A DNA stretch of 62,462 bases, filler included, from Nitrospinae bacterium RIFCSPLOWO2_12_FULL_45_22 (GCA_001803565.1; 6 parts of 6 records of this genome joined end to end with filler, not necessarily neighbours in it). Positions 12,375-46,794. Notes: generated by a model.

Positions 12375-12425
12375 TGGTATAGTGGTGTTAGGTCTAGCAG
12401 CAGTTCATCGGAGAAAGGAGATAAT

Positions 12426-13545: not shown

Positions 13546-13645
13546 NNNNNNNNNNNNNNNNNNNNNNNNNNNNNNNNNNNNNNNNNNNNTTAATTAATTA
13601 ANNNNNNNNNNNNNNNNNNNNNNNNNNNNNNNNNNNNNNNNNNNN
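13546..13645. other. artificial contig linker (also 21556-21655, 34757-34856, 43862-43961, 50259-50358)
   Basis: Identical 100-nt N-run/TTAATTAATTAA/N-run with stops in all frames. Confidence 0.98.
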
Positions 13646-14347: not shown

Positions 14348-14685
14348 ATGGAAGAGCGTATAAAACGAAGGAACAAGATATTTGGCATTTCGGCTATAGC
14401 TGTCTTTTTTATCCATAGCATTCTCCTGGCTACCAACGAATTGATCCTTACCTATAATACCTGGAGACACATCTTGATATTAACCAGATAACCAGGTATT
14501 TCCAGCTTTCAGAAAAAATCCTGCGCTATAGTTGCCCCCTTAGCTTTATCTATCTGGTGATTGGCTTAAGCTTCCTGGCAAGGATTAAGCCAGAACAGGG
14601 AGAGGAAACCCCTACCCATAAACTGGCCAAGAGGGTCTCCCTCCTCAGGTCTTTCCTGATGGTCCGGGGAATAGGGATATTATAA
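14348..14685 (+). pseudogene. small membrane protein frameshifted by an 8-nt tandem duplication
   Basis: GGAGG RBS and ATG; removing one TAACCAG(A) unit at 14481-14495 gives a 109-aa ORF with two hydrophobic segments. Confidence 0.55.
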
Positions 14686-14796
14686 GAAAGATCGAGACTC
14701 AGAGATTTGAAAGATAATTTTGACCCTCTTTGGCACAATATTTGTGATTTTCTAAACCCTTGCTAGGTCCTGGTTTCGGTAACATTACTATTTCAG

Positions 14797-16203
14797 GAGG
14801 TTGTCAAGTTTTTAGTTGAAATTTTTATAGTGGCTCCTTCCAAAGTATCCCTCATGCAGCGTACTCTAAAGCCGTATTTCCTTCCTGTACATTCTCGATA
14901 CGTGCAATGACATCGGGTATCGAGGCAAAACCCTTAATCCGATTAAAACCCTCTTCGCAATAGAGAAGAACCGATGCAAGCCAGCGCTGCATCATCTTAC
15001 TCCCCCTGTATCGCTTGATATTGCCCTCACAATCCCGCACCGTGGCGAACATGCTCTCTATGGGATTGGTTGAATGAAGGGTCTTCATCAATATGCCAGG
15101 AACCTTCAGCCGGTGAAGAGTGAGAATCTCTTCCATAGCCTCCAGGAGTGAGTATGCCGCCGACTCATTTATGCCCCTGAGCCATTTCTCCATATCCAAC
15201 AACATCTGGCGGGCATCTTCATACCGGCTTTGCTCCAGGGCCGTCCGGAACCGCCTGTGTGCCTCTTTACGATAGCGTTTCGCCAGATGCTTCTGTATGT
15301 TCCTGTCCTTATGAATTGTACATCTTTGGTGTATGAGTTTCTTCCCAAAACGATCCCTCAATGCCTTGATAATCCCCTTGCCCCCATCCGTAATCCAGAT
15401 AATGCGTCTACTGAGCCGTAAACCCCGCCGCTCCATATCTCCAAGCAGCTCCTCACCCAGCACATGATTCTCTGTAGCACCCTGCCAAAACCCCAATACC
15501 CCCTTTACATCAATACCCAGACACACCATAAATGCCTCCCCACCACGATTTATGGTATCGATAAAAACCGCAAAGGGATTAAAATCAGATAATGTCCTCT
15601 CTTTAAACTCCTCAAGCTTCTTCGCCGTTACCGCAACAATATGGCGAGATACCGAACTGGCAGATACCCCAAAAGCCTTGGCCGCTTCTACCACCGTCTC
15701 TGCATACTTCTGACACGATATGCGCCGCAATACCTTGTGCAACAACTCCTCAGAAAATACATCTCGCTCTCTGAGCTTTTGGTAGCTCTGTAATGCAATC
15801 TCCCCCTGGGGCCCTCGAAGTCGGGGGCGCTGTACCGGTATCTTTTGATCCCCTATATATACCGATCCCGCCTGACTCGCCCATTTGTATACATCCGGCA
15901 AAGATGGTCGATAGTCCAGCCCCGATATCTCTTCCCGGTCTATGTACATGATCGTCTCCGCCATCATCCCCCCAATCTCATTTATTAATACGTCAAACCC
16001 TTGCTTGCCCATTCGGTATATCTGATACATCCTATCAATAAGATCCTGCCTCCCATAGGCCTGCTCAAATCCCCTTATTGCTTTTTTCCTCCGTTTCGTG
16101 TTTACTTTCATCAGTGGCTCCTTTCTTTATGTTTTTGGGTTTCTGTGGATTATGCCACAGGGGAGCCACTTTTTCCAATTTTAACTATTTTTAGTATAAC
16201 CTC
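14797..16203 (-). mobile_element. IS256 family insertion sequence
   Basis: Imperfect TIRs GAGGTTGTCAAGTTTTTAGTTGAAATT / GAGGTTATACTAAAAATAGTTAAAATT around the transposase; no target duplication. Confidence 0.85.
14852..16111 (-). CDS. IS256 family (Mutator) DDE transposase
   Basis: FID, ITDG, HQRCTIHK, STNPIESM motifs. Confidence 0.93.
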   Translation of the reverse strand: MKVNTKRRKKAIRGFEQAYGRQDLIDRMYQIYRMGKQGFDVLINEIGGMMAETIMYIDREEISGLDYRPSLPDVYKWASQAGSVYIGDQKIPVQRPRLRGPQGEIALQSYQKLRERDVFSEELLHKVLRRISCQKYAETVVEAAKAFGVSASSVSRHIVAVTAKKLEEFKERTLSDFNPFAVFIDTINRGGEAFMVCLGIDVKGVLGFWQGATENHVLGEELLGDMERRGLRLSRRIIWITDGGKGIIKALRDRFGKKLIHQRCTIHKDRNIQKHLAKRYRKEAHRRFRTALEQSRYEDARQMLLDMEKWLRGINESAAYSLLEAMEEILTLHRLKVPGILMKTLHSTNPIESMFATVRDCEGNIKRYRGSKMMQRWLASVLLYCEEGFNRIKGFASIPDVIARIENVQEGNTALEYAA

Positions 16204-21655: not shown

Positions 21656-22570
21656 ATTATCGGAATTGCTTTTTTAATCCATACCCGATTTGTTGATAGA
21701 CCGCTTAAAGAGATGATAACCAAGATGGAGCAAGTAGAGAAAGGGGACTTTACTGCCAAGATCCAGATAGATAGTACAGATGAGTTCGCGAGAGTGGGTC
21801 GAAGTTTTAACTCGATGATTCAAAAGCTTGATATCGCTCAAGAGATGGTGGAAAAGCATCATAGGGAACAAATGGTGCATGCGGATCGCCTGGCCTCATT
21901 AGGGGAATTAGCCAGTGGTATTGCCCATGAAATCAGGAATCCTCTCGTAGGGATAGCCAGGGCTGCTGAAACCCTTTCCAGGCAATTCCAACCTGATGAT
22001 CAGCGCTATGAGGTAACAACTCTGATAACAAAAGAGTTAGAAAGATTGGACAGAAATATTAAAACTATACTTATGTATGCCCGTCCCAAACCGGTCCATT
22101 TTTCCTTCTATAATTTGAATGAGATCATGGAAGATGCCCTTTTCCTGGCTAATCTTAACTCCCATAACTACGACATCATCATAGAGAAAGATTATGCACC
22201 TAATCTACCCAAAGTTAAAGCAGATAAAGAATTGATAGAACAGGTTTTCCTCAATATAATCCTCAATGCCATTCAGGCTATGGAAGGGAAAGGCACTCTC
22301 TGGCTCAAGATTGAAGAGGTAGAGAAGGATGGTAACCCGAGTGTCCGAATAAAGATAAAGGATACTGGTAAGGGGATGTCTGAAGAAACCATGCAGGGTA
22401 TCTTTAAACCCTTTTTTACGACCAAGTCCCAGGGGACGGGGTTGGGACTCTCTATTGTCCGGAATACTATTGAGCAGCACCATGGGTCTATTTCAGTAGA
22501 AAGTAAACTCCATCAGGGAACAACCTTCACTATTAGTCTTCCTCAGAATCAAGATACACAATCAGAGTAA
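21656..22570 (+). CDS. HAMP-domain sensor histidine kinase, 5'-truncated
   Basis: Frame open from contig edge; HAMP, AHEIRNPL H-box, NAIQAM, DTGKG, GTGLGL. Confidence 0.95.
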   Translation: MIGIAFLIHTRFVDRPLKEMITKMEQVEKGDFTAKIQIDSTDEFARVGRSFNSMIQKLDIAQEMVEKHHREQMVHADRLASLGELASGIAHEIRNPLVGIARAAETLSRQFQPDDQRYEVTTLITKELERLDRNIKTILMYARPKPVHFSFYNLNEIMEDALFLANLNSHNYDIIIEKDYAPNLPKVKADKELIEQVFLNIILNAIQAMEGKGTLWLKIEEVEKDGNPSVRIKIKDTGKGMSEETMQGIFKPFFTTKSQGTGLGLSIVRNTIEQHHGSISVESKLHQGTTFTISLPQNQDTQSE

Positions 22571-22583
22571 GCCCCCACACTAA

Positions 22584-22598
22584 TGGCACAATAATTGC
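22584..22598 (+). promoter_or_regulatory. sigma54 -24/-12 promoter
   Basis: TGGCAC-AATAA-TTGC, consensus match, about 65 nt before the HD-GYP gene. Confidence 0.8.
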
Positions 22599-22662
22599 TC
22601 TTATAATTAATCTTGGGTGAGAACAATCCCTAACCATATACCTGCGTTAATCCAATAGGTCC

Positions 22663-23964
22663 ATGATGCCATCATCAGAGATTAAGGAAAAGGATTCAAT
22701 CAGATTAAGATCGAACACCTATTTTATCTTGAGTCTGATCTGTGGAGTATCCTTTCTTCTTCTCCTCACTCTGAGTGGACCGTTATATTTTCGATATAAG
22801 ATTCCTTATCCTGGCTTCAGCTCCTTTCTTTCTGGGGTTATCTTACTCTCAGTTAACTTAGCCATTCTTTTTGGGATAGTGGGGGTCATGCAATCCCGTC
22901 TCCAGAGAAAGATAGCATCATGGGAAGAGACCTTAGGAAAATCTATCAAAATACAGGAAGGAGAGTTTAAGGATCGACAGGCTACTCTCCTTCAGATGAT
23001 AAGGTTTCTGGTAGGCTTTATCGAATCAAAAGACCCTTATCGAGGGGGGCATAGTGAGCGGGTATGCCAGTATGCCCTAAAAATAGCCGAAAGTCTCGGT
23101 ATTACAAACGGACGGGAGTTGAATGATTTAGTATATGCCTGCTATTTGCATGATTTGGGCCGGATTTTTATTCCAAGACATGTTTGGGATAAGCCCGGGG
23201 AGCTCACCCAAGAGGACTATCAGCAAATTAAACAGCACCCCGTCTTTGGGGAGACAGTGCTCTCAACATTACCTGGGCTTGTGACCATAGCGCAATTTGT
23301 CCGCCACCATCATGAGAGAGAAGACGGGTTGGGCTATCCTGATAGCCTATCCGGAAATGCCCTTCCTCTAATCCCTAAAATTATTGCGGTAGCCAATGCC
23401 TATGATGCTATGAGCAGCTTGCGTCCCTACCGTCCTCCTTTTCCTCCCGAGGTTGCCCAGGAGGAGTTGAGGCGCTGTTCAGGGCTAGATTTTAACGCAG
23501 ATATAATGAGTAAATATGGTTTTAAGAGCCAAAGTGAGAGGAGATTTGACCCCCATGTTGTCACTGCTTTTCTTGGAAATGGTAAAAAAATATGGGGGAT
23601 ATCCAAAAAAAAGATAATGGTAGTGGATGATAATTATCTAACCTGTTGGTCCCTGGCCACTATCATGACAAGGGAAGGTTATGAGGTAACAACGGCAGAA
23701 AATGGGATCGAGGCCCTGGAAAAGATTAGAGAAAGAAGTGTTGATATGGTGATTACGGACTTAATCATGCCTGAGATGGACGGCTTTGAGTTGATGGAAG
23801 AAGTCAAAAAAATATCCCCTGCTGTTCCCGTGGTAATTATGACTTGCTATTACCTTCCCGAGAATGCCCGGGAAGCCAAACAAAAGGGTGCATTTGAATT
23901 TGTTGAAAAACCCTTAAAACCAGAGAAATTACAAGAGATTATCCGGAAGGCCCTTCCTGCCTAG
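22663..23964 (+). CDS. membrane HD-GYP domain protein with C-terminal receiver domain
   Basis: Two TM helices, GHSERV, HDLG, HHEREDGLGYP, then VVDD..TDLIMPEMDG..EKP. Confidence 0.9.
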   Translation: MMPSSEIKEKDSIRLRSNTYFILSLICGVSFLLLLTLSGPLYFRYKIPYPGFSSFLSGVILLSVNLAILFGIVGVMQSRLQRKIASWEETLGKSIKIQEGEFKDRQATLLQMIRFLVGFIESKDPYRGGHSERVCQYALKIAESLGITNGRELNDLVYACYLHDLGRIFIPRHVWDKPGELTQEDYQQIKQHPVFGETVLSTLPGLVTIAQFVRHHHEREDGLGYPDSLSGNALPLIPKIIAVANAYDAMSSLRPYRPPFPPEVAQEELRRCSGLDFNADIMSKYGFKSQSERRFDPHVVTAFLGNGKKIWGISKKKIMVVDDNYLTCWSLATIMTREGYEVTTAENGIEALEKIRERSVDMVITDLIMPEMDGFELMEEVKKISPAVPVVIMTCYYLPENAREAKQKGAFEFVEKPLKPEKLQEIIRKALPA

Positions 23965-24049
23965 TTTTGTCCTACTTCTCTAAATTTTTCTCTCCCGTTC
24001 ATTTAATCCTTATTATACCCGAAAAATGCAATTCTTTTTTCAAGCTCAG

Positions 24050-24112
24050 GTAGGGCAAGCCTTTAGGCTTGCTTCGGCGAATATTTCCCGCAAGGCTGAA
24101 GCCTTGCCCTAC
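24050..24112. repeat. GTAG-type REP doublet
   Basis: GTAGGGCAAGCCTTTAGGCTTGC..GCAAGGCTGAAGCCTTGCCCTAC; similar singlets near 2805, 31176, 56787. Confidence 0.75.
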
Positions 24113-24275
24113 AACTATTTGAGGCCATATCCGCATTTTTCGAATATAGTGAACGTACTAAATAATCGGACTCTTCTAATTGATAAGGGGTGCTTTTTTA
24201 TTTATAATAAACTCAAATTACGATTTACCATTTACCATTAACCCAAAATAAGGGGGTTGTCCCCATATTAATCTC

Positions 24276-25667
24276 ATGGCAGAGACCGGTAAGATATTGG
24301 TGGTAGATGATGACAGCCTGGTCGTCTGGTCCTTCAAAGAAGATCTGACCAGTTTGGGCTACCAGGTAAATACGGCCCAGAAGGGCCTGGAGGCTATAGA
24401 AAAAACCAGAGCCGACGTGCCTGATTTGATCCTGCTGGATTTAAAATTGCCCGATATATCAGGACTGGAAGTATTGCGGAGGTTAAGGGAGCGGTATCCC
24501 AACATAAACGTTATTATCATAACGGCTTATGGTGGCGTAGATACGGCCGTAGAAGCGATGAAACTAGGGGCCAGGGACTATATAGATAAAGCCATAAAGA
24601 TAGAGGAATTGGCCCATAAGATTTCTAAAGCCATGAGAGATACGCGAATAAGGCATGAATATTTTTACCAGAAAGAGCTGCTGAAGACGCGTTTTGGCCT
24701 GGAAGATATTATTGGGAAAGGTCCAAAATTTTTGGAAGTTTTAGAATCAGTAAACCAGTTGGCCGAGGTTAATGCGACCGTCCTTATCCTGGGCGAGAGC
24801 GGTGTGGGAAAAGATTTGATTGCTTATACTATTCACCGGAAGAGCCCCTGGGCTGGGGGTACTTTTTTAGAAATAAACTGTTCGGCTTTACCCGATACGC
24901 TATTAGAGAATGAGCTCTTCGGCCATGAGCGAGGTGCCTACACGGATGCCAGAGAACAGAGAAAGGGTCTTTTTGAATCGGCCAAAGATGGTACCCTGTT
25001 TCTGGATGAGATAGGGGACATGTCCCTGGCTATGCAAGCTAAGATTATCAAGGCCATAGAGACCAAGACCATAAGAAGATTAGGGTCCGCTAAAGAGGTA
25101 AAGACCAATGTCCGCATAATTGCCGCTACCAATAAAGACATAGAATCTTTAATGGCAGAAGGGAAATTCAGGGAAGACCTTTATTACCGCCTGAAGACCT
25201 TCCAGATTGTCCTTCCGCCTTTACGGGAGCGGCAAGAAGACATCCCTTTATTGGTAAACCATTTTGTGGAGGTTTATAATAAAGAGCATAAATTAATGAT
25301 AAACGGTGTTTCGGAAGAGGCCATGTCCCTTATGATGAGTTATCATTGGCCAGGAAATGTGAGGGAATTAAGAAATGTTGTCGAAAGGGGAATAATAATA
25401 GCCAAAAGTGGCATAATAATTCCTGCCCATCTTCCCAAAGAAATGGTACATCTCAATGGGGTGGATACGGAAAAGAAATCTATTTTACCTCAGAGGCCTA
25501 CCCATGATGTCCCCTTAGCCGAAATAGAGAAGACCATGATTCAAAACGCCTTAGAGAAGGCTAAAGGAAAACGGGGCGAGGCAGCCCGCCTTTTAGGCAT
25601 TAGCCGGCATACACTCCGGTACCGGATGAAAAAATACAAACNNNNNNNNNNATACAAACTGAATTAG
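24276..25667 (+). CDS. sigma54-dependent response regulator (NtrC/AtoC family)
   Basis: REC, GESGVGK, ELFGHERGAYTDA, FLDEIG, WPGNVREL, Fis HTH; exact end obscured by Ns. Confidence 0.95.
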   Translation: MAETGKILVVDDDSLVVWSFKEDLTSLGYQVNTAQKGLEAIEKTRADVPDLILLDLKLPDISGLEVLRRLRERYPNINVIIITAYGGVDTAVEAMKLGARDYIDKAIKIEELAHKISKAMRDTRIRHEYFYQKELLKTRFGLEDIIGKGPKFLEVLESVNQLAEVNATVLILGESGVGKDLIAYTIHRKSPWAGGTFLEINCSALPDTLLENELFGHERGAYTDAREQRKGLFESAKDGTLFLDEIGDMSLAMQAKIIKAIETKTIRRLGSAKEVKTNVRIIAATNKDIESLMAEGKFREDLYYRLKTFQIVLPPLRERQEDIPLLVNHFVEVYNKEHKLMINGVSEEAMSLMMSYHWPGNVRELRNVVERGIIIAKSGIIIPAHLPKEMVHLNGVDTEKKSILPQRPTHDVPLAEIEKTMIQNALEKAKGKRGEAARLLGISRHTLRYRMKKYKXXXXYKLN

Positions 25668-25749
25668 ACAGGATTTACCGGATAGAGGATTTATTATTTG
25701 GCTTAACTTTTGTTTCAATTATATTCAGGACGCAGATTTGCGCAGATAA

Positions 25750-25968
25750 CTACTTTCTAAAATTGGAAAATGCTTTCCGCTTAGTCTCTGGTTTAGGTCC
25801 AAAATTGAGTAAAATTCCAACTTCTATCTTGGTTGCTTTTAGATAATTTAAAAGCTGTGCCTCATGCTCATCAAAGCCATAGCCTAGTTTGTTATAAACT
25901 TTATAAAAGGTTCCAATGATCTTTTCCGTTAATTCTTTATATTGAAAATCTTGAAAATCTGCGTTCAT
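25750..25968 (-). pseudogene. GxxExxY (PD-(D/E)xK) protein with in-frame internal deletion, flanked by inverted repeats
   Basis: LTEKIIG..VYNKLGYGF joined directly to HEAQLLNYLKAT..GILLNFG; IRs at 25728-25747 and 25957-25976. Confidence 0.85.
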
Positions 25969-26002
25969 CTGCGTCCAAAACGAAAATTACTATGCTACAA
26001 AT

Positions 26003-26425
26003 TTATTTCAGTTCCTGAAGGTTTTTGTGGCAGGAGAAACAGAAAAGCTGACCCGGCATTGTGCGTCTTAGAAAGCTGGTTTTCTGTCTACCTTCCGTGT
26101 TGATAAACCCTTCGTGAAAGGTATGACAGGTAATACAGGCGATTTTACCATCTTTATCCAGGGGCATATCGGCCGGAACAGGCATCGATGGGACAACCTT
26201 TATGGGGTGAGAAAAATGGCTATGCGCCTGATGGCATTCCATGCAAGCCCTATTGACCGTTTCCGTAAAGAAAATCTGGTGTCCAGCAAAGGGTAACCGC
26301 TCATGACACTGGAGACAGCCTATCATCACAATATCATCGTGAACCCCGAGGCTATACCCTGCATTTTCTGAAAGATAGAGGAGCCCGAGCAAAAATAGGG
26401 CTATGCCATATAAGCTGAATCTCAT
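26003..26425 (-). CDS. small tetraheme cytochrome c
   Basis: Signal peptide; CLQCH, CMECH, CITCH, CFSCH; SHP..MPL linker. Confidence 0.9.
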   Translation of the reverse strand: MRFSLYGIALFLLGLLYLSENAGYSLGVHDDIVMIGCLQCHERLPFAGHQIFFTETVNRACMECHQAHSHFSHPIKVVPSMPVPADMPLDKDGKIACITCHTFHEGFINTEGRQKTSFLRRTMPGQLFCFSCHKNLQELK

Positions 26426-27006
26426 CTATTAAATATCTTCAATCCATCTTCGAAGGCCCTAATATCCTCCATCGCCTTCTTTTGTGTGTGGACCAGGATA
26501 TCAGGCTTCCCCGATGCTTTTTCCATTTCTATGATGGATTTGGTGAGAGCCTGTGAGAGGTGTTTTAAATCTAAAAATCTTTTCCTGAAACCCTCAACCA
26601 TAATGTTCAATTCCGCTGCAAAATCTTTGAATTCGTCTTTGCCCCTCAAGATGATAGAAAAACTCAGATCCCCTTGAGATATCCTGTATAGATCAGTCCT
26701 GATTCTATGCAAAGGGCCAGTGATGGTCCAGAAGATTAGTATCGTGGCAAAAATAAACACGAGAAAAACAAAAAAAAGGGCAAAAAGATTGGCATACAGT
26801 ATTTCGCTGAAAAGGAGCTGGCCGGTTGATTCGGTAAAGATATGGATCTTATACTGCATTTGATCGAGCTTCCTGTATGCCAGAAAATTAAATAACCCTA
26901 TGGCCAGAACCCCACCTAGGGCGGCGACCAGGGAAAACTTCAGGACAAATTTACCCTGAAAGCCCTTCTTTATGAAGTAATTTCTCCTTTTATACGGCTT
27001 TTTCAT
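26422..27006 (-). CDS. 2TM HAMP-domain membrane protein
   Basis: RRNYFIKKGFQ, two TM helices, GPLHR..GDL..LRGKDEF. Confidence 0.85.
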   Translation of the reverse strand: MKKPYKRRNYFIKKGFQGKFVLKFSLVAALGGVLAIGLFNFLAYRKLDQMQYKIHIFTESTGQLLFSEILYANLFALFFVFLVFIFATILIFWTITGPLHRIRTDLYRISQGDLSFSIILRGKDEFKDFAAELNIMVEGFRKRFLDLKHLSQALTKSIIEMEKASGKPDILVHTQKKAMEDIRAFEDGLKIFNR

Positions 27007-27011
27007 ACCTT

Positions 27012-27108
27012 GTAACCTTTCAGCCACAGGGACACGGAGCCACAGAGAAACCATTCATCTCAGTGACTCTGGGTCTCTGTGGCAAATGTTTTCCTACTGA
27101 ATGGTTAT
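27012..27108. mobile_element. GTAAC-type MITE with perfect 8-bp target duplication
   Basis: CATACCTT at 27004-27011 and 27109-27116; ends GTAACCTTTCAG / CTGAATGGTTAT; internal 9-mer inverted arrays. Confidence 0.9.
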
Positions 27109-27674
27109 CATACCTTGATGCCTGAGAGGATTCTGCTAATATCTTCTGCCTTCTCAGCAGCATCATCAATCACTCGCTGTGCTTCTTCAGATGTTCCTCT
27201 CACCGTTAAAGCTTCCGTTTTCTGGGAGATTTCCTTTAACGCATGGATTCCTCTTTCCAATTGCTGAATGATCTCGCTGTAGTTTCTGGTTATATCATTT
27301 AAAGCATCAGCCAATGGGTGGATTACATCCTTCTCTCTTAAGTGGACTTTTACTCTGAGGTCTCCCTCGGCAATGATTTTGGCGGTTAACCCGAGCCGGT
27401 AAATAGGCCCCGCTACCCTGTGAGAATACAGAAGGGTCATAACTGCTACGCCGATCAGGAAGAAAGAAGTAGCAGAATAGACCATAATGGTCTTATATAA
27501 CAGTTCCTGTTTAAGCTTTGCAATCAGTTCCAGGCTTTCTTTATAGGAAGGTCCAAATTCTTCATAAATGGCAAGATAAAATACCGCCACTGTCATAATA
27601 GCCCCGGCAGTTATGATTAAAAGGGACTTGAGAGCGAGTTTATAGGGAAAGGACCTGGAAATAATCTCCTTCAT
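27108..27674 (-). CDS. 2TM HAMP-domain membrane protein
   Basis: SHRVAGPIYR..GDL..LREKD; GAGG upstream of ATG 27674. Confidence 0.85.
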   Translation of the reverse strand: MKEIISRSFPYKLALKSLLIITAGAIMTVAVFYLAIYEEFGPSYKESLELIAKLKQELLYKTIMVYSATSFFLIGVAVMTLLYSHRVAGPIYRLGLTAKIIAEGDLRVKVHLREKDVIHPLADALNDITRNYSEIIQQLERGIHALKEISQKTEALTVRGTSEEAQRVIDDAAEKAEDISRILSGIKV

Positions 27675-27675
27675 A

Positions 27676-28983
27676 TTATTGTACCTCAACCACAATGCTG
27701 TCACATGTCGCGTATGCGGGATTGTAGACCCCGTTCAGGTTCCTATCCAGACAGAGATAGAATGTAAGGTCAATTGCGGGAAACCCTGCGGTACTACTAA
27801 AGATCGGCCAAACAATATCATTCAGGACAGCGGGTACGGTGAAGCTATTGAGCAGCGGGGCTATCTCTGTATAGGCACTAACTTGCCGCACGCCGCCGGT
27901 AATATCCAGGGAGAATTTCAAGTCCCTGCCTTGCAATCGGGTCTCTACCCAGGCAAAGACCTCTGTGGCCGCCTCTCGCCAGTAAGTGTTTGACTGGATG
28001 TCAAAACTTAGTGTGATCGGCCCGGGGATGGCAACAGACTTGCTGGTGGCACCATTCTCAAAGACGAAAATATCCGGCTTAAAGACCACCACCCGGTCAT
28101 TGAAGCTATCCGCTACATAAACATTGCTGCCCCAGTCAACCGTCAGACCTGTCGGGTTACTGAGGGTATCAGCGCCCCATTCCGCAAAAGTCCCATCAGG
28201 AGATAGCTTCTGTATCCGGTCATTTCCCGTATCGGCCACATAGATGGTGCCGTCCGGCCCGATCGCTATCCCTTCCGGCGCACTGAATTCTAAAGGGCCG
28301 GAACCCTCTGACCCACCGGCAGCTATGAATAGCCCCTTTGGGTCAAAAAGCTGAACCCTATTGTTATCGGTATCTACCACAAAGACATTGCCAGACCTAT
28401 CAGTGGCCACATCTTTCGGGAAACGGAGATCTCCCTCTTCATTGCCCCCACTGCCCCAGGCGGTTATAAAAGTTCCATTAGCATCAAATTTCTGTATCCT
28501 GTGATTGTCCGTATCTGCCACATAAACCGAGCCATCCGGCCCAACTGCGATACCTGAGGGGGCGTCAAATTGCCCGTTGCCATCGCCGCTAGAGCCCCAT
28601 TCCGACAGCAACGCACCGGTTGGGGAGAATCTGAGCACCTTGTCAAAGAAATTGGTGACATAATATAGGTCTCCACCGCTATTGGCCGCTATACCCTGGG
28701 GGAAGAAGTTTGTGGGGGTCCATTGAGACAAGAAATTCCCGAAAGGATCGAATCTGAGTATCCTCGTGTTTGATGAGTCCGCGATATAGAACGTCCCATC
28801 AGGGGCAATAGCCACATCAGTCGGGCCGGTAAGAGAGCCAAAGGCCCCGGTCTCGAACTCTTTTAATATGGAATAAGTCTCTGCACCTGCTACAGCGGCT
28901 ATGGCCAGTAAGAAAAAGCCACCTAAGATTACAGATTTCAGGCTTGCTTTACAGCTTTGTAGCGCTCCCTGTTTCTCGTTCAT
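27676..28983 (-). CDS. exported NHL-repeat beta-propeller protein with C-terminal extension
   Basis: Six P-x-G-I-A..YVADTxNxRIQ repeats after a signal peptide. Confidence 0.92.
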   Translation of the reverse strand: MNEKQGALQSCKASLKSVILGGFFLLAIAAVAGAETYSILKEFETGAFGSLTGPTDVAIAPDGTFYIADSSNTRILRFDPFGNFLSQWTPTNFFPQGIAANSGGDLYYVTNFFDKVLRFSPTGALLSEWGSSGDGNGQFDAPSGIAVGPDGSVYVADTDNHRIQKFDANGTFITAWGSGGNEEGDLRFPKDVATDRSGNVFVVDTDNNRVQLFDPKGLFIAAGGSEGSGPLEFSAPEGIAIGPDGTIYVADTGNDRIQKLSPDGTFAEWGADTLSNPTGLTVDWGSNVYVADSFNDRVVVFKPDIFVFENGATSKSVAIPGPITLSFDIQSNTYWREAATEVFAWVETRLQGRDLKFSLDITGGVRQVSAYTEIAPLLNSFTVPAVLNDIVWPIFSSTAGFPAIDLTFYLCLDRNLNGVYNPAYATCDSIVVEVQ

Positions 28984-29088
28984 CCTAACCCTCCTTTTCC
29001 TCTACCTTCCCCTCCAGATAGGCTACCCTCTCCTCTAATGTAGCTGCCATCCAAGACCTCCCGTTAACCATTTACCCGTATAGGCAGC

Positions 29089-29649
29089 TCAGAATATCGC
29101 CTTTAATCCCACCTCAAAACCAGGCAGGATGATAGACCCTATCTCACCCTCTTCTATTGCCTTTCCCACAAGGACAAACTCATTGCCCCGGTTCTCATAT
29201 AGCTCAATACTCCTCTCCCCCGGGTCAACTATCCAATACTCCTTCACCCCATGCCTGGCATAAATAGCCTTCTTATGCCTTAAATCATAGTAGGCCGTAG
29301 AGGGAGATAGGATCTCTACCACCAGATCAGGTGCACCTTCGACTTTATCCTCTTTTATTATATCAAGCCGTTCTTTTGCGATAAAGATAAGATCGGGCTG
29401 ATAGGTCTCCCCCTCTTCCAGATAGACATCAATAGGAGCAAAAAATACTTTACCTAACTGGTTTTTACGTTCTACATATTCATAGAGCATGAACTCAAGC
29501 CGCTTTAACACTTCTTGATGATATGGCGTGGGAGAAGGTGTCATGATGAGCTGTCCTCCAATCAATTGGTATGGTGCCCCTTCGGGTAGCTTGGCATAAT
29601 CTTCATAGGTATAAGATAGCCTTTTCGGGATCGTCTTTAACACGGCCAT
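29089..29649 (-). CDS. Uma2 family endonuclease
   Basis: PSPTPYHQ, QPDL, GAPDLVVEILSPST, GVKEYWIVDP. Confidence 0.95.
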   Translation of the reverse strand: MAVLKTIPKRLSYTYEDYAKLPEGAPYQLIGGQLIMTPSPTPYHQEVLKRLEFMLYEYVERKNQLGKVFFAPIDVYLEEGETYQPDLIFIAKERLDIIKEDKVEGAPDLVVEILSPSTAYYDLRHKKAIYARHGVKEYWIVDPGERSIELYENRGNEFVLVGKAIEEGEIGSIILPGFEVGLKAIF

Positions 29650-29669
29650 AACCTGTTTAGCCCTCCTTT

Positions 29670-29849
29670 GTAGCTGCCATCCAAATGCTCCTTTATTAGG
29701 CGGTATTTCTCAGATACAACCCAGACTATACCTGAAAAGATATTGGGTGTCAACGGAATGAAAGCTTATGGGGTACTTCCTGGAATTACTATTCACTATT
29801 TACCATTAACTCATTAAGTGGTGGATCGAAGACTCCCCCTGGCAGCCAC
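29670..29849. repeat. MITE-like element with GTAGCTGCCA/TGGCAGCCAC ends; shorter relative at 29040-29090
   Basis: GTAGCTGCCATCCAA occurs on both sides of the Uma2 gene; no target duplication seen. Confidence 0.55.
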
Positions 29850-29891
29850 AAAATAAGCAAAATAAGGGGGTTGTCTCCATATTTCTGTCCC

Positions 29892-30263
29892 TTAAGCTTT
29901 AATGATCCTCCTCGCAAATTCCAGGACGGTTCTTATAGCCTCCTCCGGATTATCGCTTAAATTACTCTCTACCACATTTTCCTGGGCTTTATCATGGAAA
30001 TGTTTTGGATAGGTTTGGAGCTTCTTAGCTTCACGGTCAGGCAAGTTATTATATCGATATATTGTTCCATCAACTTCTCTTCTTTCCCAATGATAGGCAT
30101 ATACTCCTTTTTTCTTCACTGAAAGCCAAATATCCATAAAAGTCTCATCCTTAAATAAAAGCCGTAATTTTCCTTCCATCACAGTTATGCCTTCTACAAT
30201 ATCTCCAAAATCGCTTACGGCGATCTGTCTAAATTGGGAATAAATTTTGTCTCTGGATATCAT
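29892..30263 (-). CDS. DUF6516 family putative toxin
   Basis: YAYHW..RYNNLP..TYPKHFH. Confidence 0.75.
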   Translation of the reverse strand: MISRDKIYSQFRQIAVSDFGDIVEGITVMEGKLRLLFKDETFMDIWLSVKKKGVYAYHWERREVDGTIYRYNNLPDREAKKLQTYPKHFHDKAQENVVESNLSDNPEEAIRTVLEFARRIIKA

Positions 30264-30265
30264 TA

Positions 30266-30547
30266 CTAAGTTGCCTTCTGCAATAATTTGGCAACTTTTT
30301 CCTTTTCTAACTCAAGATACTCGATCCTGCCCAAATCATCAAAACACTCCCCCTCGGTTACCTCACCGGCCTCAAGTTTTTTCCATAGCCCCTCAAATGA
30401 ATCCACACCATAGCGGTTTGATAATTTCTTTATTTCTATAGATAAATTTTTTAATTCTACTTCCAGATAGCGCCTGATTCCTTCTTCAACCAACCGTTTT
30501 TTAGGGATCTTTAATTCCTTCTCAACCATTTGTATTAGGCTCGGCAT
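30266..30547 (-). CDS. putative antitoxin partner of DUF6516 protein
   Basis: Small helical ORF 2 nt upstream of the toxin; RYGVDSFE..GEV..DD pattern. Confidence 0.65.
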   Translation of the reverse strand: MPSLIQMVEKELKIPKKRLVEEGIRRYLEVELKNLSIEIKKLSNRYGVDSFEGLWKKLEAGEVTEGECFDDLGRIEYLELEKEKVAKLLQKAT

Positions 30548-30654
30548 TTAATCCCACCCCCATTTACTCATATGATTTTACTAACAAAGATTTGTATTTA
30601 TGATTCAATAATAGCTTTTTGAGTTCTATTGGTCAACCAGGTTAGAAAACCCTC

Positions 30655-30893
30655 AGCAATTCCCGGTCAAATTATAAACCGTTGGGATTGCTTCGCTATC
30701 CCTTCGTTGTCCGCCACACCTCGCTCGCGGCTCCGGATCAGAGCTAAAGGCCCTGCGCAATGATAGAAAAAGTCTTCCTCATGTCATTGCAAGGCTTGTC
30801 CCGAGCATAAGCGAGGGGACCGGCCGAAGCAATCTCAAAAACCGGATCGGAACAGGCTCCGCAATCTTATGATAGTTTTGACCGGGAAGTGCT
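30655..30893. mobile_element. MITE-like element with AGCAATTCCCGGTCAAA TIRs enclosing REP-like palindromes
   Basis: Right end TTTGACCGGGAAGTGCT matches 16 of 17 positions. Confidence 0.7.
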
Positions 30894-30912
30894 TGCCTGG
30901 CCATATATTATA

Positions 30913-30950
30913 TGCGCCATATGACGCATATGCGTGGCGCCATATGGCGC
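30913..30950. promoter_or_regulatory. tandem enhancer-binding-protein sites
   Basis: TGCGCCATATGACGCA and perfect palindrome GCGCCATATGGCGC about 90-125 nt upstream of a sigma54 site. Confidence 0.65.
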
Positions 30951-31035
30951 CTAACACGCATCTTCCAGATGCCCGACTCCTGGGAGCAAACCGTTTAAAT
31001 CATTGCCATATAACGAATCCCGCATGCCCCTCCCT

Positions 31036-31051
31036 TCGGCATACTATTTGC
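31036..31051 (+). promoter_or_regulatory. sigma54 -24/-12 promoter
   Basis: TCGGCAT-ACTAT-TTGC (GG-N10-GC) upstream of the multiheme cytochrome genes. Confidence 0.7.
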
Positions 31052-31303
31052 CCTTCTTAATTATACCCCCTAAGAATGTGTGTGAATATTGACACGATAG
31101 AAGCGAGAGAAAAGAAAGGAGGGATATGAGTTTTGAGCGTGATCAAAGATACGGGGTGATGCCTCGCAGTTTATGTAGGGCAGGGCTTTAGCCTTGCCGC
31201 AATCTATCATTATTAAACGTTCAGCCCTTGGCAAAGGAGGCTAACCAATATTGGCTGAAAGCTGATGGCTGAATGCTAATGGAAGAGAAAGGAGGTTAGG
31301 TAG

Positions 31304-34024
31304 ATGAAGCAAAAGAATAAATGGCGATTTTTGGTAATTTTTCTTGCCCTGGCCATCCCGCTTTTATTAACTACAGATGCCAAGGCATGGCAGGGCGATA
31401 CCTTCTGTCTGCAATGTCACAAGACGGGCGGTGTAGTGGCGCTGGATAAAGAGAGCTATCTGAAAACGGGCCATAAGAATATGCTGCGGGAGGTATGTCC
31501 TAACAATGTATGTACCCCTTTGGCCGGCCCTGATGGGGTTATCTATCTCACCGACGCCAGTCTCAATCCGATTAACTGGGCTACCGGAACGGTTAATATT
31601 GGCGGGGTAGATAAGATACTCTATTACATCCTTGATGGCTGGTTTGTTGAGAATACTCTACCCTCGGCGATATATGGGAGTGCAAATCCTGCGGATCCTC
31701 CTGGTCCTAATTACAGTTGCGCCAAATGCCACACCACAGGGTACGAAGCTGATAATAATCAAACCCCTCTGCCAGCGGCGCATATAACAAACAGAACTGG
31801 AACTGGTTTCAGTACTACCGTTGGTGGTGTAGTTACTTCCTGGAACCTTGATGGGATACAGTGCGAGCGCTGCCATGGTGGGATGAATCCCCCATTCGCA
31901 GGCCACCCAATTTTAGGGAGTTTAACTTGCACAAACTGCCATGATGGGACCAATCCACTAAATCACTCCAACTCAAGCCCAACTAATTGGTATGACCCTA
32001 CACATCCGGAATACGAGGCAACAACTGAGCTGTGTATGAACTGCCATAGCCAAAATGCACTTCCACCTGGTGGATCTGGCTGGAGCACGCCGCAGCCGAA
32101 GCCCCTTGTAGTTGGGGCCCACGGTAGCTATGCCGAGGATTTTTCGGGCCACCCCATAGGTGATGAGTACTTAAACAGCCCGAAGGCAAGGTTCCAGGGA
32201 ACTTCGGCAGAGTTAACTGTCTCATCAAAATATCATAGCCATTTCTGGACTAGCGGCAAAAACAGGGGATGTGTCGGTTGTCACGATGTGCACGAAAGTA
32301 CTGTGGATGTGATAGAGGCATCGCCGATACCCGCAGACAAAGAATGTACCGATTGCCACGGCTATAAGAAAGTGGCAGATATACGCCATCCCTCCGGAGA
32401 AGAAACGCCCATTGAAGATCCCACCGTACAAAGTATGGACCCCTGTGTGGTCTGCCATATGCCTAAACTTCATCACGGAGAAGGGCTCAGGACCCATCTC
32501 TACCGGATAAACATTGACCCTGCCTACCGGACCTTCCCTACCCCAATGGAATTCTATGGTGGGGTATGTAATGACACGCATGACGGTAAGGGTGGTGGTC
32601 CAGATGGTGATTGTGATGATTATATTGACACCAATGGCAATAAGAAATGGGATGTTGGTGAACCAATAGAGAATAATAAGGCGGCTGGAAAGACCACAGC
32701 TTATACCGCTTCTGATGGCGAATTGGAAGAAGCGGTCTGGCTGGATCTGGACAGTGCCTGCGGCCAATGCCACGGTGGTGGGACAGATAAGGCTGAAACT
32801 ACCGGCTCAATCGATGCGAAATCGATGACTTTAACGGTGGCAGATGCTACCGGCTTTATTGCGGGTGAAGTCATTGAGGTTGAGGGTGCAGGAACCAGTG
32901 ATCTGGAAGCCGTGATCGTCAGTATTAGTGAAAATTCAATTAAGATTGTGCCCGGGGCAGCAACTACTGTAACTGATGCACACGTGATCCAAAATCCTCC
33001 AAAAAAAGGTATGCCCTATATGAGCAAGGCCTACCTGGCATCCTGGGCGGTCAATATCCATCAGACACCTGAGGGAAGGTTCAACTGGATGCATGGCACA
33101 GACTGTTACCAGGTAAACTTCGATGCTACCATGAACCGCGGTGCCACTGATACCGTCACTAAGTTTGCTTGGAATTTTGGTGATCTTAAAACTTGGAGTA
33201 AGCCTGCCGATAATGATGCAAACACAAACTGCAATGACAAAGGGACCATTTGTAGTCATACCTATGCCGCACCAGGCACTTATGCCGTTACCCTGACCGT
33301 TAATTACAGCCTATCCCGCATCATGCTGGTAACGGCAAAGGGTAACAGTGCCGTTCCGGATAGCTTCTTCGATGTGTTTACCAATTATGATGGGGCATGT
33401 ACGGATGGTAATCCATGCACCGATGATCCAACGGGTATGACAGCACGGGTAAAAGATGGCTCGGCTCCCAATTCCTGTGGGGCAACCACCGCTGGTACCG
33501 CCTATGTCATGTGGGGAGATGGGACCACTACGCAAGAGGGCATTACTCTTGGAGACGCAGAGTGGGATCACGAGTACAATAACCCGGGCACATACCACAT
33601 CACTTACTGTGTCAAGGACAGCAATGGTAACAAGTCCTGCGCACCTAAGGTAACTGTGAATGTACCTGACAAGCCAACGGCGGTATATGAAGTGAGTGGT
33701 CTAATCACCTATGACGCTGATACACCGTGCTATGACTTAAATGGCGATGGTGATTGTACTGACCTTGGCGAAGTGGGTCCCGGGAATGGTGCTGCCAACG
33801 TCACCCTCTACCTGAAAAACGGCTTGACCATTGTCAAGATGGGTAAGACCGATACTTCAGGCAACTATGAGATAAACAATGTGCCAGTATTAGACACTGA
33901 TGGTGACGGAGTTGAAGACCCCTACACCATAGTGCCAAAGAGGAACGGATACTTCTTCACACCTGAGACGCAGGAAGTGGATAGCTCAAGTCCGATGGCA
34001 GACTTTGAAGCCACTTCAGAGTAG
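31304..34024 (+). CDS. large exported 9-heme cytochrome c with PKD and Ig/carboxypeptidase-regulatory-like C-terminal domains
   Basis: Signal peptide; nine CxxCH; WNFGD..SHTYAAPGTYAVTLTV and WGDG..HEYNNPGTY PKD signatures; DxNGDG loops. Confidence 0.92.
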   Translation: MKQKNKWRFLVIFLALAIPLLLTTDAKAWQGDTFCLQCHKTGGVVALDKESYLKTGHKNMLREVCPNNVCTPLAGPDGVIYLTDASLNPINWATGTVNIGGVDKILYYILDGWFVENTLPSAIYGSANPADPPGPNYSCAKCHTTGYEADNNQTPLPAAHITNRTGTGFSTTVGGVVTSWNLDGIQCERCHGGMNPPFAGHPILGSLTCTNCHDGTNPLNHSNSSPTNWYDPTHPEYEATTELCMNCHSQNALPPGGSGWSTPQPKPLVVGAHGSYAEDFSGHPIGDEYLNSPKARFQGTSAELTVSSKYHSHFWTSGKNRGCVGCHDVHESTVDVIEASPIPADKECTDCHGYKKVADIRHPSGEETPIEDPTVQSMDPCVVCHMPKLHHGEGLRTHLYRINIDPAYRTFPTPMEFYGGVCNDTHDGKGGGPDGDCDDYIDTNGNKKWDVGEPIENNKAAGKTTAYTASDGELEEAVWLDLDSACGQCHGGGTDKAETTGSIDAKSMTLTVADATGFIAGEVIEVEGAGTSDLEAVIVSISENSIKIVPGAATTVTDAHVIQNPPKKGMPYMSKAYLASWAVNIHQTPEGRFNWMHGTDCYQVNFDATMNRGATDTVTKFAWNFGDLKTWSKPADNDANTNCNDKGTICSHTYAAPGTYAVTLTVNYSLSRIMLVTAKGNSAVPDSFFDVFTNYDGACTDGNPCTDDPTGMTARVKDGSAPNSCGATTAGTAYVMWGDGTTTQEGITLGDAEWDHEYNNPGTYHITYCVKDSNGNKSCAPKVTVNVPDKPTAVYEVSGLITYDADTPCYDLNGDGDCTDLGEVGPGNGAANVTLYLKNGLTIVKMGKTDTSGNYEINNVPVLDTDGDGVEDPYTIVPKRNGYFFTPETQEVDSSSPMADFEATSE

Positions 34025-34038
34025 TAAATGGAGAGGTT

Positions 34039-34073
34039 AGCGGGGACAGATTCCAAATCTGTCCCCGCTCTTT
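34039..34073 (+). terminator. strong hairpin (terminator, mRNA stabiliser or REP-like)
   Basis: AGCGGGGACAGATT-CCA-AATCTGTCCCCGCT followed by CTTT. Confidence 0.55.
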
Positions 34074-34222
34074 AATCCTTGGCTGAATAGGGGGTGCCAG
34101 GGGTTATAGGTACAAGGGAGGTTCTAGGTTCGACGTTAGAAGTAAGGACCTAGAACGATGAACTCAGAACGGAAAACGTAGAACGTCGAACGAATAAACG
34201 AATAATGGAAGGAGGGAAGAGG

Positions 34223-34756
34223 ATGAAAAAAACGATCAGTTTAATAATCATGTTCCTTGCCCTGTCCCTTTTCCTCTGCTCAGGTAGTGTTATAGCAGCG
34301 GATTATAGTTCAAAGACTCCGGGGACAGGCATCGAGGATACAGCCCATGACCTCCGGTATGGACATCCTGCCGGTGATGTTTATGGGGCCAATGATGTCG
34401 ATAATGAATATGGTGGCGGTGACCTGAACCGGATATGTATCTGGTGCCATGCACCACACCATACCCTCAGGCCGGCCGATTTTGCCGGGGATATTGACTA
34501 TCTACCCCTGTGGAACCATACCACCACGACCATGGTTTATCAGACCTATAGCAATGGGGCGGATGATCCGGATGACCCAAACCATGCCTCTACGGCAGAG
34601 ATCCTGGCCAATCAACCGGGCTCAGTATCCAAGCTCTGCCTGAGCTGTCATGATGGTACCGTGGCAGTCAATGAGTATGGTTTTGCCCCGGGTGACATCA
34701 AGTCCAGTGGTGTACGCAAGGGAGATGCCCCGGTCTTTATCACGTCCCAGTACCGG
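34223..34756 (+). CDS. OmcE-like multiheme cytochrome c, 3'-truncated at contig end
   Basis: Signal peptide; TAHDL, ICIWCHAPH, PLWN, SKLCLSCHDG in the same order as Geobacter OmcE. Confidence 0.8.
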
Positions 34757-34856
34757 NNNNNNNNNNNNNNNNNNNNNNNNNNNNNNNNNNNNNNNNNNNN
34801 TTAATTAATTAANNNNNNNNNNNNNNNNNNNNNNNNNNNNNNNNNNNNNNNNNNNN

Positions 34857-35383: not shown

Positions 35384-35968
35384 CTATTTCCAATGCTTGA
35401 TCTTCTCTTTATATTCCGCAAAATTGAAGGGTTTATGAACCGGATTCTCTTCGTTGTGGCAGGTAGTACAGGTCTTTTCATCCGGGATTATCATGCCCGC
35501 AGCGATGGCGGCTTTGCGGGCTGCCTCCCGGTTCTCTTTGTAGGCCTTCACACTCATTATCTTGGGGCTGCGGTAGTCACTACCTGCTCCATGACAGGCC
35601 TCACATCCAACATTGGCCAACTTTGGGGCCTTCTCCATACTTTCAAACCCTCCAGGTTGACCATAGCCTGTGGTGTGGCACTTCAGACATTTAGGGTCGG
35701 TAGTATAATCTTTCTGGGGATCAAGCTTGGCCTTGGTCTTGGCATCAGCGGCTGCACCAGGTTTCAGGGTTTCCATCGCCTTAGCCATCTTGGTAGCCTC
35801 CCAGACCTTATACTGGGCGCCACCAATCTTTACATTAGAATGACATGCCTTACATTTATCCACCCCAACAAAATTGGCCGGACCAGCAAATAATCCAGTT
35901 GATTGGAAAATAACCAGCAAGCTACATATACTCATTATCCCTACAATTCGCTTTATAATCTCAGTCAT
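35384..35968 (-). CDS. cytochrome c554 family tetraheme cytochrome
   Basis: FVGxxKCKACH, CLKCHTTGYG, NVGCEACHGAGS, CTTCH. Confidence 0.92.
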   Translation of the reverse strand: MTEIIKRIVGIMSICSLLVIFQSTGLFAGPANFVGVDKCKACHSNVKIGGAQYKVWEATKMAKAMETLKPGAAADAKTKAKLDPQKDYTTDPKCLKCHTTGYGQPGGFESMEKAPKLANVGCEACHGAGSDYRSPKIMSVKAYKENREAARKAAIAAGMIIPDEKTCTTCHNEENPVHKPFNFAEYKEKIKHWK

Positions 35969-45538: not shown

Positions 45539-45556
45539 AGGAGATGGGGTAAAACT

Positions 45557-46012
45557 ATGGAGCACCAAAAGCACTTTTTCCGAGCCATCTTTTTATTGAT
45601 AGTAATTATTATGGTATACATTTTTGCCCGCTCCCTTATTTTTCATCCTGAGACCTGGGTACCAGAGGCTAAGGAGATGATTAGATCGCATACACCGGTC
45701 TTTGGAAACCTTCATGGCTGTAATGGTTGTCATTCAGAGGTTGCCAGGACCAGGGCAGAGGGGGAGCATAAGGGGGTTTCATGCGAGGTCTGTCACGCCC
45801 CCCTCTCAACTCATGCCGAAGGCAAGAAAAAGATCGCACCTATGGTAAAGAACCGTTCTGCCAAGCTCTGTATGAGATGCCATCAGCAATTGAGGGCACG
45901 ACCGGCCAATTTTTCTCAAGTAGTAGTAGCTAATCACTTAAGCGAGAATGGGATAGCATTTGAGCCTGAGGTCTGTATTGATTGCCATATGCCCCATTCT
46001 CCAAAATTATAG
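45557..46012 (+). CDS. membrane-anchored tetraheme cytochrome c (CbcS-like)
   Basis: TM anchor; CNGCH, CEVCH, CMRCH, CIDCH. Confidence 0.9.
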   Translation: MEHQKHFFRAIFLLIVIIMVYIFARSLIFHPETWVPEAKEMIRSHTPVFGNLHGCNGCHSEVARTRAEGEHKGVSCEVCHAPLSTHAEGKKKIAPMVKNRSAKLCMRCHQQLRARPANFSQVVVANHLSENGIAFEPEVCIDCHMPHSPKL

Positions 46013-46028
46013 ATAAGGAGTCTATTTT

Positions 46029-46793
46029 ATGGGACTTTGCCGGAGGGATTTTTTACGCTGGGGTTTAATGGGGCTGGCAGCCGGGGGTATGGTCACCAGG
46101 TCTGTTTACCCAATATATGGAACAGAGGAAGAGGAGCCTAAGAGGGGCCTTGAGTATAACCCCGAAGACCATTATTATGGATACCTGATTGATACCTATA
46201 AATGCATCGGTTGTGGTATGTGTGTTCAGGCCTGCAAAATGGAGAATTCGGTTCCAGAGAAGTTTTTCCGCACCTGGGTAGAGCGCTACCTCATCGCTGA
46301 TAATGGTGAAGATTTGGTGGTTGATTCTCCCCATGGGGGTATAAGTGGATTTCAGCCCGAGGTGACTAAATTTAACATCACCAAGGGATTTTTTGTGCCC
46401 AAGATGTGCAACCATTGCCAGAATACACCGTGTATACAGGTTTGTCCCGTAGGCGCTTCTTACATGACGGAAGATGGCCTGGTTTTGGTGGACTTTAAAC
46501 ATTGTATTGGGTGTGGCTACTGTGTGCAGGCCTGTCCCTATGGGAGTCGTTTTATGAACCCCTATACCCACACCGCTGACAAATGCACCTGGTGTTACCA
46601 TCGCATTAGTCGCTATATGCTCCCGGCCTGTGTGCAGGCTTGCCCGGTGAAGGCGAGGCGTTTTGGTGACCTTAAAGACCCAAATGATGAGGTACGTAGG
46701 ATCATTGCCACGGAGAGAGTTGGTGTATTGCAGCCTGATCTTTTAACCAAGCCCAAATGCTTCTACTTGGGATTAGACAAAGAGGTGGTATGA
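46029..46793 (+). CDS. Tat-exported 4x[4Fe-4S] subunit (NrfC/DmsB-like)
   Basis: RRDFL; CIGCGMCVQAC, CNHC..PCIQVCP, CIGCGYCVQACP, KCTWC..PACVQACP. Confidence 0.95.
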   Translation: MGLCRRDFLRWGLMGLAAGGMVTRSVYPIYGTEEEEPKRGLEYNPEDHYYGYLIDTYKCIGCGMCVQACKMENSVPEKFFRTWVERYLIADNGEDLVVDSPHGGISGFQPEVTKFNITKGFFVPKMCNHCQNTPCIQVCPVGASYMTEDGLVLVDFKHCIGCGYCVQACPYGSRFMNPYTHTADKCTWCYHRISRYMLPACVQACPVKARRFGDLKDPNDEVRRIIATERVGVLQPDLLTKPKCFYLGLDKEVV

Positions 46794-46794
46794 T

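Follow-up and report, generated by a model that had tools for sequence, protein, structure and literature searches.

A split and probably canonical omcE-type cytochrome-nanowire cluster in a Nitrospinae bacterium

The DNA analyzed here (the window, 62,462 nucleotides with filler) comes from Nitrospinae bacterium RIFCSPLOWO2_12_FULL_45_22 (GCA_001803565.1) and consists of six contigs of one bin, placed end to end with five artificial joins (N44-linker-N44). The locus of interest lies on contig C219 (window 21656–34756), which ends inside an omcE-like gene. We consider it likely that this locus belongs to a split but canonical omcE-type cytochrome-nanowire, or trans-envelope electron-transfer, cluster, the filament being what we infer from the genes. 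In gene content, the cluster appears to be of the canonical omcE type, split over contigs. The core OmcE system is already known; what is notable here is the host lineage and an OcwA-like partner linked to one subfamily of the subunit.

Completion and identity of the OmcE-like subunit

The 5′ part of the omcE-like gene covers 178 codons (34223–34756, + strand). The motifs TAHDL, ICIWCHAPH, PLWN, and SKLCLSCHDG, reported in a preliminary description of the locus, are all in the + frame opened by the ATG at 34223. The N run that follows (34757–34856, no strand) is an artificial contig linker, and the true continuation is contig C310 (16,869 bp; coordinates L001), whose first 80 bp repeat the C219 end exactly, an 80-mer found at these two places only. 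The gap, which the preliminary description had left to be closed, is closed by this unique overlap: The remainder of the gene is at L001:3–353 and the joined open reading frame (ORF) codes for 268 residues, 1 of which differs from P0001, a full-length public-collection protein from an independent assembly. Because the N run is an artificial join, the window from 34857 onward is unrelated DNA. The cytochrome c554-like tetrahaem gene across the linker (35384–35968, contig C220) is, thus, excluded as part of the locus, since it sits on a different contig.

The completed protein is an OmcE-family tetrahaem cytochrome by sequence, ligand pattern, and fold. It is exported and its four CxxCH motifs start at C72, C139, C229, and C256. 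The distal histidines H42, H79, H189, and H236 align with histidines of both 7TFS (OmcE of Geobacter sulfurreducens) and 9YUQ (an OmcE bundle of Desulfuromonas soudanensis); in PMC13712944, four further conserved histidines serve as the OmcE distal ligands. These four residues are invariant in 114/114 close homologues (114 of 120 listed matches, with six fragments or near-duplicates excluded) and are retained in 71 of the 73 GTDB anchors (78 loci minus five in which the best match is a fused 10/11-haem protein). A fifth covalent haem in the subunit is ruled out, with exactly four CxxCH in all 114 homologues, unlike the five-haem “leaky” OmcE-like family described in PMC13712944.

In a single-sequence search of 177,635 PDB sequences, the only significant matches are 9YUQ (E 5e-16) and 7TFS (E 6e-10). 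With the family profile, the values become 2e-30 for 7TFS and 1e-29 for 9YUQ, the next match being at E 0.07, so that the likeness to OmcE is not due to chance. The AF2 model of the subunit (predicted local distance difference test, pLDDT, 75; predicted template-modeling score, pTM, 0.68) aligns with 7TFS in VIA-align (Z 10.2, root-mean-square deviation 3.6, 176 residues aligned), the only chain out of 48,161 with Z of at least 2. Foldseek gives 7TFS at E 1.4e-6 (TM 0.43 by query, 0.54 otherwise), with noise (E 9.2) as the sole other row. The OmcE-like identity first proposed from the motifs is, thus, borne out by profile and structure, and no grouping of the full-length protein with non-polymerizing periplasmic cytochromes was seen. 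Like OmcE, the subunit is a tetrahaem protein with the same motif order, four CxxCH and four distal histidines, and the same fold; it differs in being 24%–27% identical, 268 residues long, with longer loops and with NHHP where OmcE has NDHP. Relatives at 67%–82% keep the full-length protein.

Two further elements can be mentioned. A degenerate 7/14-nt tandem repeat is present at 34148–34202, just upstream of the ribosome-binding site of omcE. Elsewhere in the bin, a second exported protein with four CxxCH (G000:C208:4728–5306) matches the OmcE profile partially (E 9e-13); its contig is of atypical composition.

Cluster partners on the continuing contigs

After omcE, C310 codes for a 310-residue secreted protein, an Rpn-like protein, a Uma2 protein, a 699-residue 9-haem PKD cytochrome, a 16-haem cytochrome with a LamG-like tail, a secreted NHL protein, an 11-haem cytochrome with an Ig-like tail, and, cut by the contig end, an NHL lipoprotein with a lipobox-like cysteine. 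In L104, which is 99.5% identical to the C310 end over 1,464 bp, the next gene codes for a 5-haem cytochrome, and after it a putative barrel begins (the first 59 residues of a conserved 650–760-residue protein; homologue match E 3e-9). In the relative L108 (66% identical), the order is lipoprotein, 5-haem cytochrome, barrel, PpiC, and second NHL protein. Contig C3 begins inside a second NHL gene (54% identical to that of L108), followed by 11-haem, convergent 13-haem, and 7-haem genes. Because C3 starts within the second NHL gene and L108 displays that gene order, C310 and C3 probably form one cluster with ∼4 kb missing. The missing piece, ∼4 kb by the L108 layout, falls below the smallest contig of the bin (4,886 bp), so that a size filter would be the simplest explanation for the absence of the barrel. 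The first part of the C3 11-haem protein is an entire OmcE module (7TFS, E 5e-21), and the four distal histidines are kept in 46–48 of 48 such OmcE-headed proteins. All cytochrome ORFs of the cluster are intact.

Several features of C310 stand apart. For the 310-residue protein (L001:384–1316), Trp-rich and encoded directly 3′ of omcE, Pfam and NCBIfam gave no match and Atlas no usable one, and homologues are lacking in the 78 GTDB and 65 metagenome related loci; its gene is probably cotranscribed with omcE. The 16- and 11-haem secreted cytochromes (L001:6491–10783 and 12216–15404) have a near-identical N-terminal module with different tails (LamG-like and Ig-like, respectively), which suggests modular shuffling. 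On contig C8, beside a 5-haem protein, there is another copy (G000:C8:43–411, 51%) of the C-terminal domain found in the secreted NHL protein (L001:11801–12175). An 80%-identical copy of the same domain occurs at L104:1–138, directly before the NHL lipoprotein, and, thus, near-identical strains differ in the upstream array of large secreted genes.

Co-occurrence in related loci

We compared 78 GTDB loci, drawn from the best 80 of 625 confirmed matches. Homologues are found for the NHL lipoprotein in 63 of them, the putative barrel in 52, the second NHL protein in 51, the OmcE-headed 10/11-haem protein in 47, the 13-haem cytochrome in 39, and the 5-haem cytochrome in 36. In the 41 loci of at least 17 kb, the counts are 38 (lipoprotein), 37 (barrel), 40 (second NHL), 36 (OmcE-headed), and 29 (13-haem). 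The neighborhood survey suggested in the preliminary description, thus, shows that the gene set co-occurs widely. According to PMC13712944, the minimal omcE cluster consists of two multihaem cytochromes, two β-propeller lipoproteins, OmcE, and a large β-barrel, with barrel plus propeller lipoprotein as the criterion for a likely nanowire OmcE. As in the clusters of G. sulfurreducens and D. soudanensis, β-propeller lipoproteins and multihaem cytochromes are present here, and the large putative barrel is represented by its start in L104. Unlike the known clusters, the present one is interrupted, and it is larger by four secreted 9–16-haem cytochromes (PKD/Ig/LamG) as well as by a HAMP pair and two secreted NHL proteins. 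Neither C219 nor C310 showed any glycosylation genes.

The preliminary description cited an NHL gene of the window (27676–28983), but the canonical NHL lipoprotein is the one on C310: The cited gene is the best match in 2/78 loci versus 63/78 for the C310 lipoprotein, and it is ruled out as the canonical omcE partner. Both HAMP genes, with a relative of the window's small tetrahaem cytochrome between them, are found in 3/78 GTDB and 6/65 metagenome loci; because of this distribution, the HAMP–cytochrome–HAMP module appears to be an optional, recurrent add-on. An accessory set of its own had been proposed for this organism; the HAMP module and a PKD cytochrome (below) are indeed present, but neither is unique, the latter recurring in eight loci of its subfamily. 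Sigma54 activators (19/78) and kinases (18/78) occur nearby as well, both being common families.

The record labels of the 78 hosts include Desulfobulbia, Nitrospirota, Acidobacteriota, Myxococcota, Bacteroidota, and Calditrichota. The survey of PMC13712944 names homologues in five phyla (Thermodesulfobacteriota, Pseudomonadota, Aquificota, Campylobacterota, and Nitrospirota), and its supplement may list further phyla or members of the subfamily described below. As labeled, L026–L101 place OmcE-type clusters beyond these five, in Acidobacteriota, Bacteroidota, Calditrichota, Sumerlaeota, Verrucomicrobiota, Ignavibacteriota, and others.

A long-loop subfamily and its PKD-type cytochrome

The subunit groups with 14 other rows in a FastTree tree of 73 rows; this 15-row clade stands on a long stem and has a support of 100. 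The span between haem 1 and haem 4 is 172–204 in the clade and 146–179 elsewhere. The clade has NHHP where the others have NDHP, and that histidine occurs also in two loci outside the clade. A PKD-type multihaem cytochrome is encoded upstream of omcE in 8/14 other rows of the clade and in 0/63 loci outside it; the rows being kin and the flanks variable, these counts are a description and not a statistical test. Of the remaining rows, one is without upstream DNA and five are of Desulfobacterota type without PKD cytochrome; in four of these five, large cytochromes of other kinds are close by or no large cytochrome is in view.

In the window, this cytochrome is the exported 9-haem protein seen earlier upstream of omcE, and the ORF agrees with it (31304–34024, + strand): 906 residues, nine CxxCH, one N-terminal hydrophobic segment, and a haem domain followed by two PKD domains (a PKD/Ig-like tail). 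The 699-residue 9-haem PKD protein of C310 is its paralogue. For the haem domain, the family counts 303 representatives, and the family profile matches 6QVM, OmhA of Carboxydothermus ferrireducens (E 8e-10). The top three fold matches of its model (pLDDT 62) are OcwA (Z 8.0), MccA (Z 7.5), and OmhA (Z 6.2), these Z scores being borderline, and Foldseek gives E 0.05 against OcwA. No single-sequence PDB match was obtained for the 906- and 1062-residue cytochromes, and the Atlas matches of the 906-residue haem domain, all below 0.9, are leads only. A weak likeness of the modeled haem domain to OcwA, MccA, and OmhA is, therefore, suggestive only. In PMC9250108, OcwA, MccA, and OmhA form one clade (clade 3), OcwA is a cell-surface nonahaem iron reductase, and OcwA and OmhA have two penta-coordinate haems with conserved non-bonding histidines. 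The 906-residue protein shares nine haems with OcwA (Thermincola potens, 6I5B); it differs from OcwA, OmhA, and MccA (4RKM) in its PKD/Ig tail and in its Gram-negative-type cluster context. Our literature search found no paper tying PKD-domain multihaem cytochromes to extracellular nanowires.

Between the 9-haem gene and omcE, there is a perfect 14-bp inverted repeat (34039–34069, + strand), possibly an mRNA-stabilizing or processing hairpin.

Host lineage and genome

The GTDB phylum of the host comprises two genomes, and the other one (68% complete) has no match. The nearest source-named RpoB sequences are labeled Nitrospinae (77%) and Candidatus Tectomicrobia (73%). In a 37-row RpoB tree, the host lies in a supported clade inside the group labeled Nitrospinota/Tectomicrobia (SH-aLRT 99), apart from the Desulfobacterota rows; the tree is from a single gene by a quick method, with no Geobacter sequence among its rows. 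To that extent, the host, which had been described as not looking like Geobacter, is not one of the Desulfobacterota. Six sequencing runs each contain at least half of the sampled words, five of them soil metagenomes and one a groundwater metagenome; no RNA data set was among the runs listed, which says nothing about expression. The bin (85% complete) contains two CcsA-family genes and a full-length COX1, and neither dsrA nor a NiFe hydrogenase large subunit came over the cut-off in it with the queries used. Literature searches retrieved no paper on OmcE-type extracellular electron transfer in Nitrospinota, and none joining cytochrome nanowires, OmcE, and NHL.

The tetranucleotide match to the bin is 0.94 for C219 and 0.92 for C3, which are ordinary in composition, and 0.845 for C310 (rank 43 from the bottom of 321). 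Depth over C219 is broadly similar in four sequencing runs, repeat bins excepted.

Divergent genes, insertions, and regulatory sites

Four genes of C219 are on the − strand: a small tetrahaem cytochrome with four CxxCH (26003–26425), two 2TM-HAMP proteins, each combining two hydrophobic segments with a HAMP-like part (protein 2, 26422–27054; protein 1, 27108–27704), and a secreted NHL β-propeller with a C-terminal domain (27676–28983), which has no lipobox cysteine and is 24% identical to the second such gene on C310. The small tetrahaem protein is homologous to the N-terminal half of a 7-haem cytochrome that other omcE clusters, and also C3, carry between the two HAMP genes. The preliminary description called these genes divergent from the omcE unit; their orientation is as stated, but they are ∼2.3 kb away from the 9-haem/omcE unit, and a Uma2 gene, a TumE gene plus its small partner, and an inverted-repeat element lie in between. 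The Uma2 gene and the TumE-family gene with its small upstream partner, the latter possibly a toxin–antitoxin pair, occupy 29089–30547, with further Uma2 and Rpn-like genes on C310. The element (∼240 bp, 30655–30893), upstream of the promoter region, has 17-nt inverted repeats at its ends and an inner 14-nt pair, and looks like a miniature mobile element.

On the + strand, at the start of C219, are found a HAMP-HisKA-HATPase sensor kinase (21656–22570, cut in 5′ by the contig start), an HD-GYP/receiver protein (22663–23964, with a sigma54-like site at 22584; its link to the cluster is weak, 1/78 loci), and a sigma54 activator with receiver, AAA+, and HTH domains (24276–25667). Kinase and activator are, thus, on one contig with the cytochromes, as first noted. 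The 10 N at 25642, in the 3′ end of the activator gene, are a false gap that contigs from three of four sequencing runs bridge with 18 letters fewer.

With the −24/−12 consensus, a sigma54-type promoter-like core was called at 31037–31051 (+ strand), 267 bp upstream of the 9-haem/omcE unit, where it would act as its promoter. The genome contains 74 such cores, which gives a chance of 0.004 per 400 bp; a second core precedes the C310 paralogue. Within the subfamily, L024, L025, L028, L034, L038, and probably L037 have the core a short way 5′ of omcE or of the PKD cytochrome gene, and no such placement was seen in the remaining 8/14 loci. About 85–125 bp upstream of the site, two tandem palindromes of 14–17 bp, 23 bp apart (30911–30953, no strand), are a candidate enhancer for the sigma54 activator; they are not repeated upstream of the C310 promoter. 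Control of the unit by the neighboring sigma54 activator is plausible from this arrangement.

Elsewhere in the window, contig C221 carries a separate respiratory cluster (45539–48999), with, by inspection, tetrahaem, ferredoxin-like, membrane-subunit, and trihaem cytochrome genes.

Discussion

In the mechanism that we favor, the subunits would be exported, loaded with haem in the periplasm, and passed through the putative barrel with the help of NHL lipoproteins. They would then polymerize head to tail, each giving a histidine to the haem of its neighbor, into an insulated haem wire fed by periplasmic multihaem relays; reviews describe the interfacial haem of OmcE as ligated by a histidine of the adjacent subunit. 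More tentatively, the OmcE-headed 11-haem protein might start or anchor the wire, the PKD/Ig-tailed cytochromes might be surface terminal redox proteins or adhesins, and the adjacent two-component pair might turn on the unit via sigma54.

A number of observations weigh against this assignment. The subunit is just 24%–27% identical to OmcE (TM by query 0.43), and two of its insert regions (75–82 and 90–96) are poorly modeled and could alter the subunit interface. Some 15 kb of other genes, Rpn-like and Uma2 included, separate omcE from the lipoprotein, and the evidence that joins C310 to C3 is synteny, no exact end-overlap having been found between the two. The barrel gene was not found in the bin with three barrel queries and the L108 barrel, and the putative-barrel homologues have no Pfam match (n = 3) and no fitting NCBIfam match (n = 4). 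The complete OmcE module also heads an 11-haem protein that is not a homopolymer, so that fold and ligands alone do not imply polymerization. More generally, PMC12977616 warns that homologues of nanowire cytochromes are prone to mistaken predictions.

One alternative is a non-filamentous porin–cytochrome conduit, in which an OmcE-fold monomer or small oligomer would relay electrons from the barrel to the secreted PKD/Ig cytochromes as the real terminal contacts. Porin–cytochrome conduits (MtrCAB, Geobacter Pcc) combine a barrel with periplasmic and extracellular multihaem cytochromes, and the present cluster resembles them in its multihaem cytochromes, several of them with DmsE-like repeats, and would do so in its putative barrel. 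The OmcE module works inside the fused 11-haem protein, and the loops of the subfamily are longer (172–204 vs. 146–179) and accompanied by an OcwA-like cytochrome; in addition, OmcS homologues are, according to PMC12977616, not known to form wires. On the other hand, the two family members with solved structures both form filaments, the pattern of eight histidines is unchanged with no ninth conserved ligand needed, and the two proven nanowires have, according to PMC13712944, the same cluster architecture around them. The barrel homologues, moreover, match no MtrB-type family, the DmsE/MtrA matches are far below cut-off, and neither NHL lipoproteins nor OmcE-fold subunits are part of Mtr. We regard such a conduit as unlikely. 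Slightly less so, though still improbable, is an inward flow, with electrons of reduced minerals or partner cells used with oxygen or another high-potential acceptor. The full-length COX1 agrees with it, as do the negative searches for dsrA and the hydrogenase subunit, but absence from an incomplete bin shows little, and the characterized OmcE hosts and OcwA/OmhA reduce Fe(III). It is, besides, compatible with the filament and differs in direction only: Electrons may pass either way, out to minerals, humics, and partners, or in from them. The least probable alternative by far is a decaying, recently acquired non-functional or mis-binned island. The Rpn-like, Uma2, TumE, and inverted-repeat elements that interrupt the cluster, the lower tetranucleotide match of C310, and the lack of a match in the other genome of the phylum point in that direction; yet the cytochrome ORFs are all intact, relatives at 67%–82% keep the full protein, C219 and C3 are ordinary in composition, and the depth of C219 is broadly even in the four runs. 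The omcE-type nanowire cluster remains the reading that we prefer.

In PMC13712944, no anchor was found in the cluster and no tip candidate in OmcE operons. A speculative view, which we hold to be rather doubtful, is that the long-loop OmcE wires of several uncultured phyla carry dedicated end-pieces: The OcwA-like PKD nonahaem protein, encoded directly 5′ of the subunit, would be a tip in contact with minerals or a terminal reductase, and the OmcE-headed 11-haem protein would be the base; H80, H121, and H188, extra conserved residues in this subfamily, would then serve in partner or metal binding. If true, a dedicated tip and base would explain how an OmcE wire starts and ends, a question that has been stated as open.

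With the cluster described here, OmcE-type long-range electron transfer would extend to a lineage of two GTDB genomes, found in soil and groundwater metagenomes and outside the five phyla named in PMC13712944. The questions of tip and anchor would gain concrete candidates: a surface-reductase-like cytochrome, restricted to the subfamily and encoded directly 5′ of the subunit, and, within the cluster, an undecahaem protein with an OmcE head.

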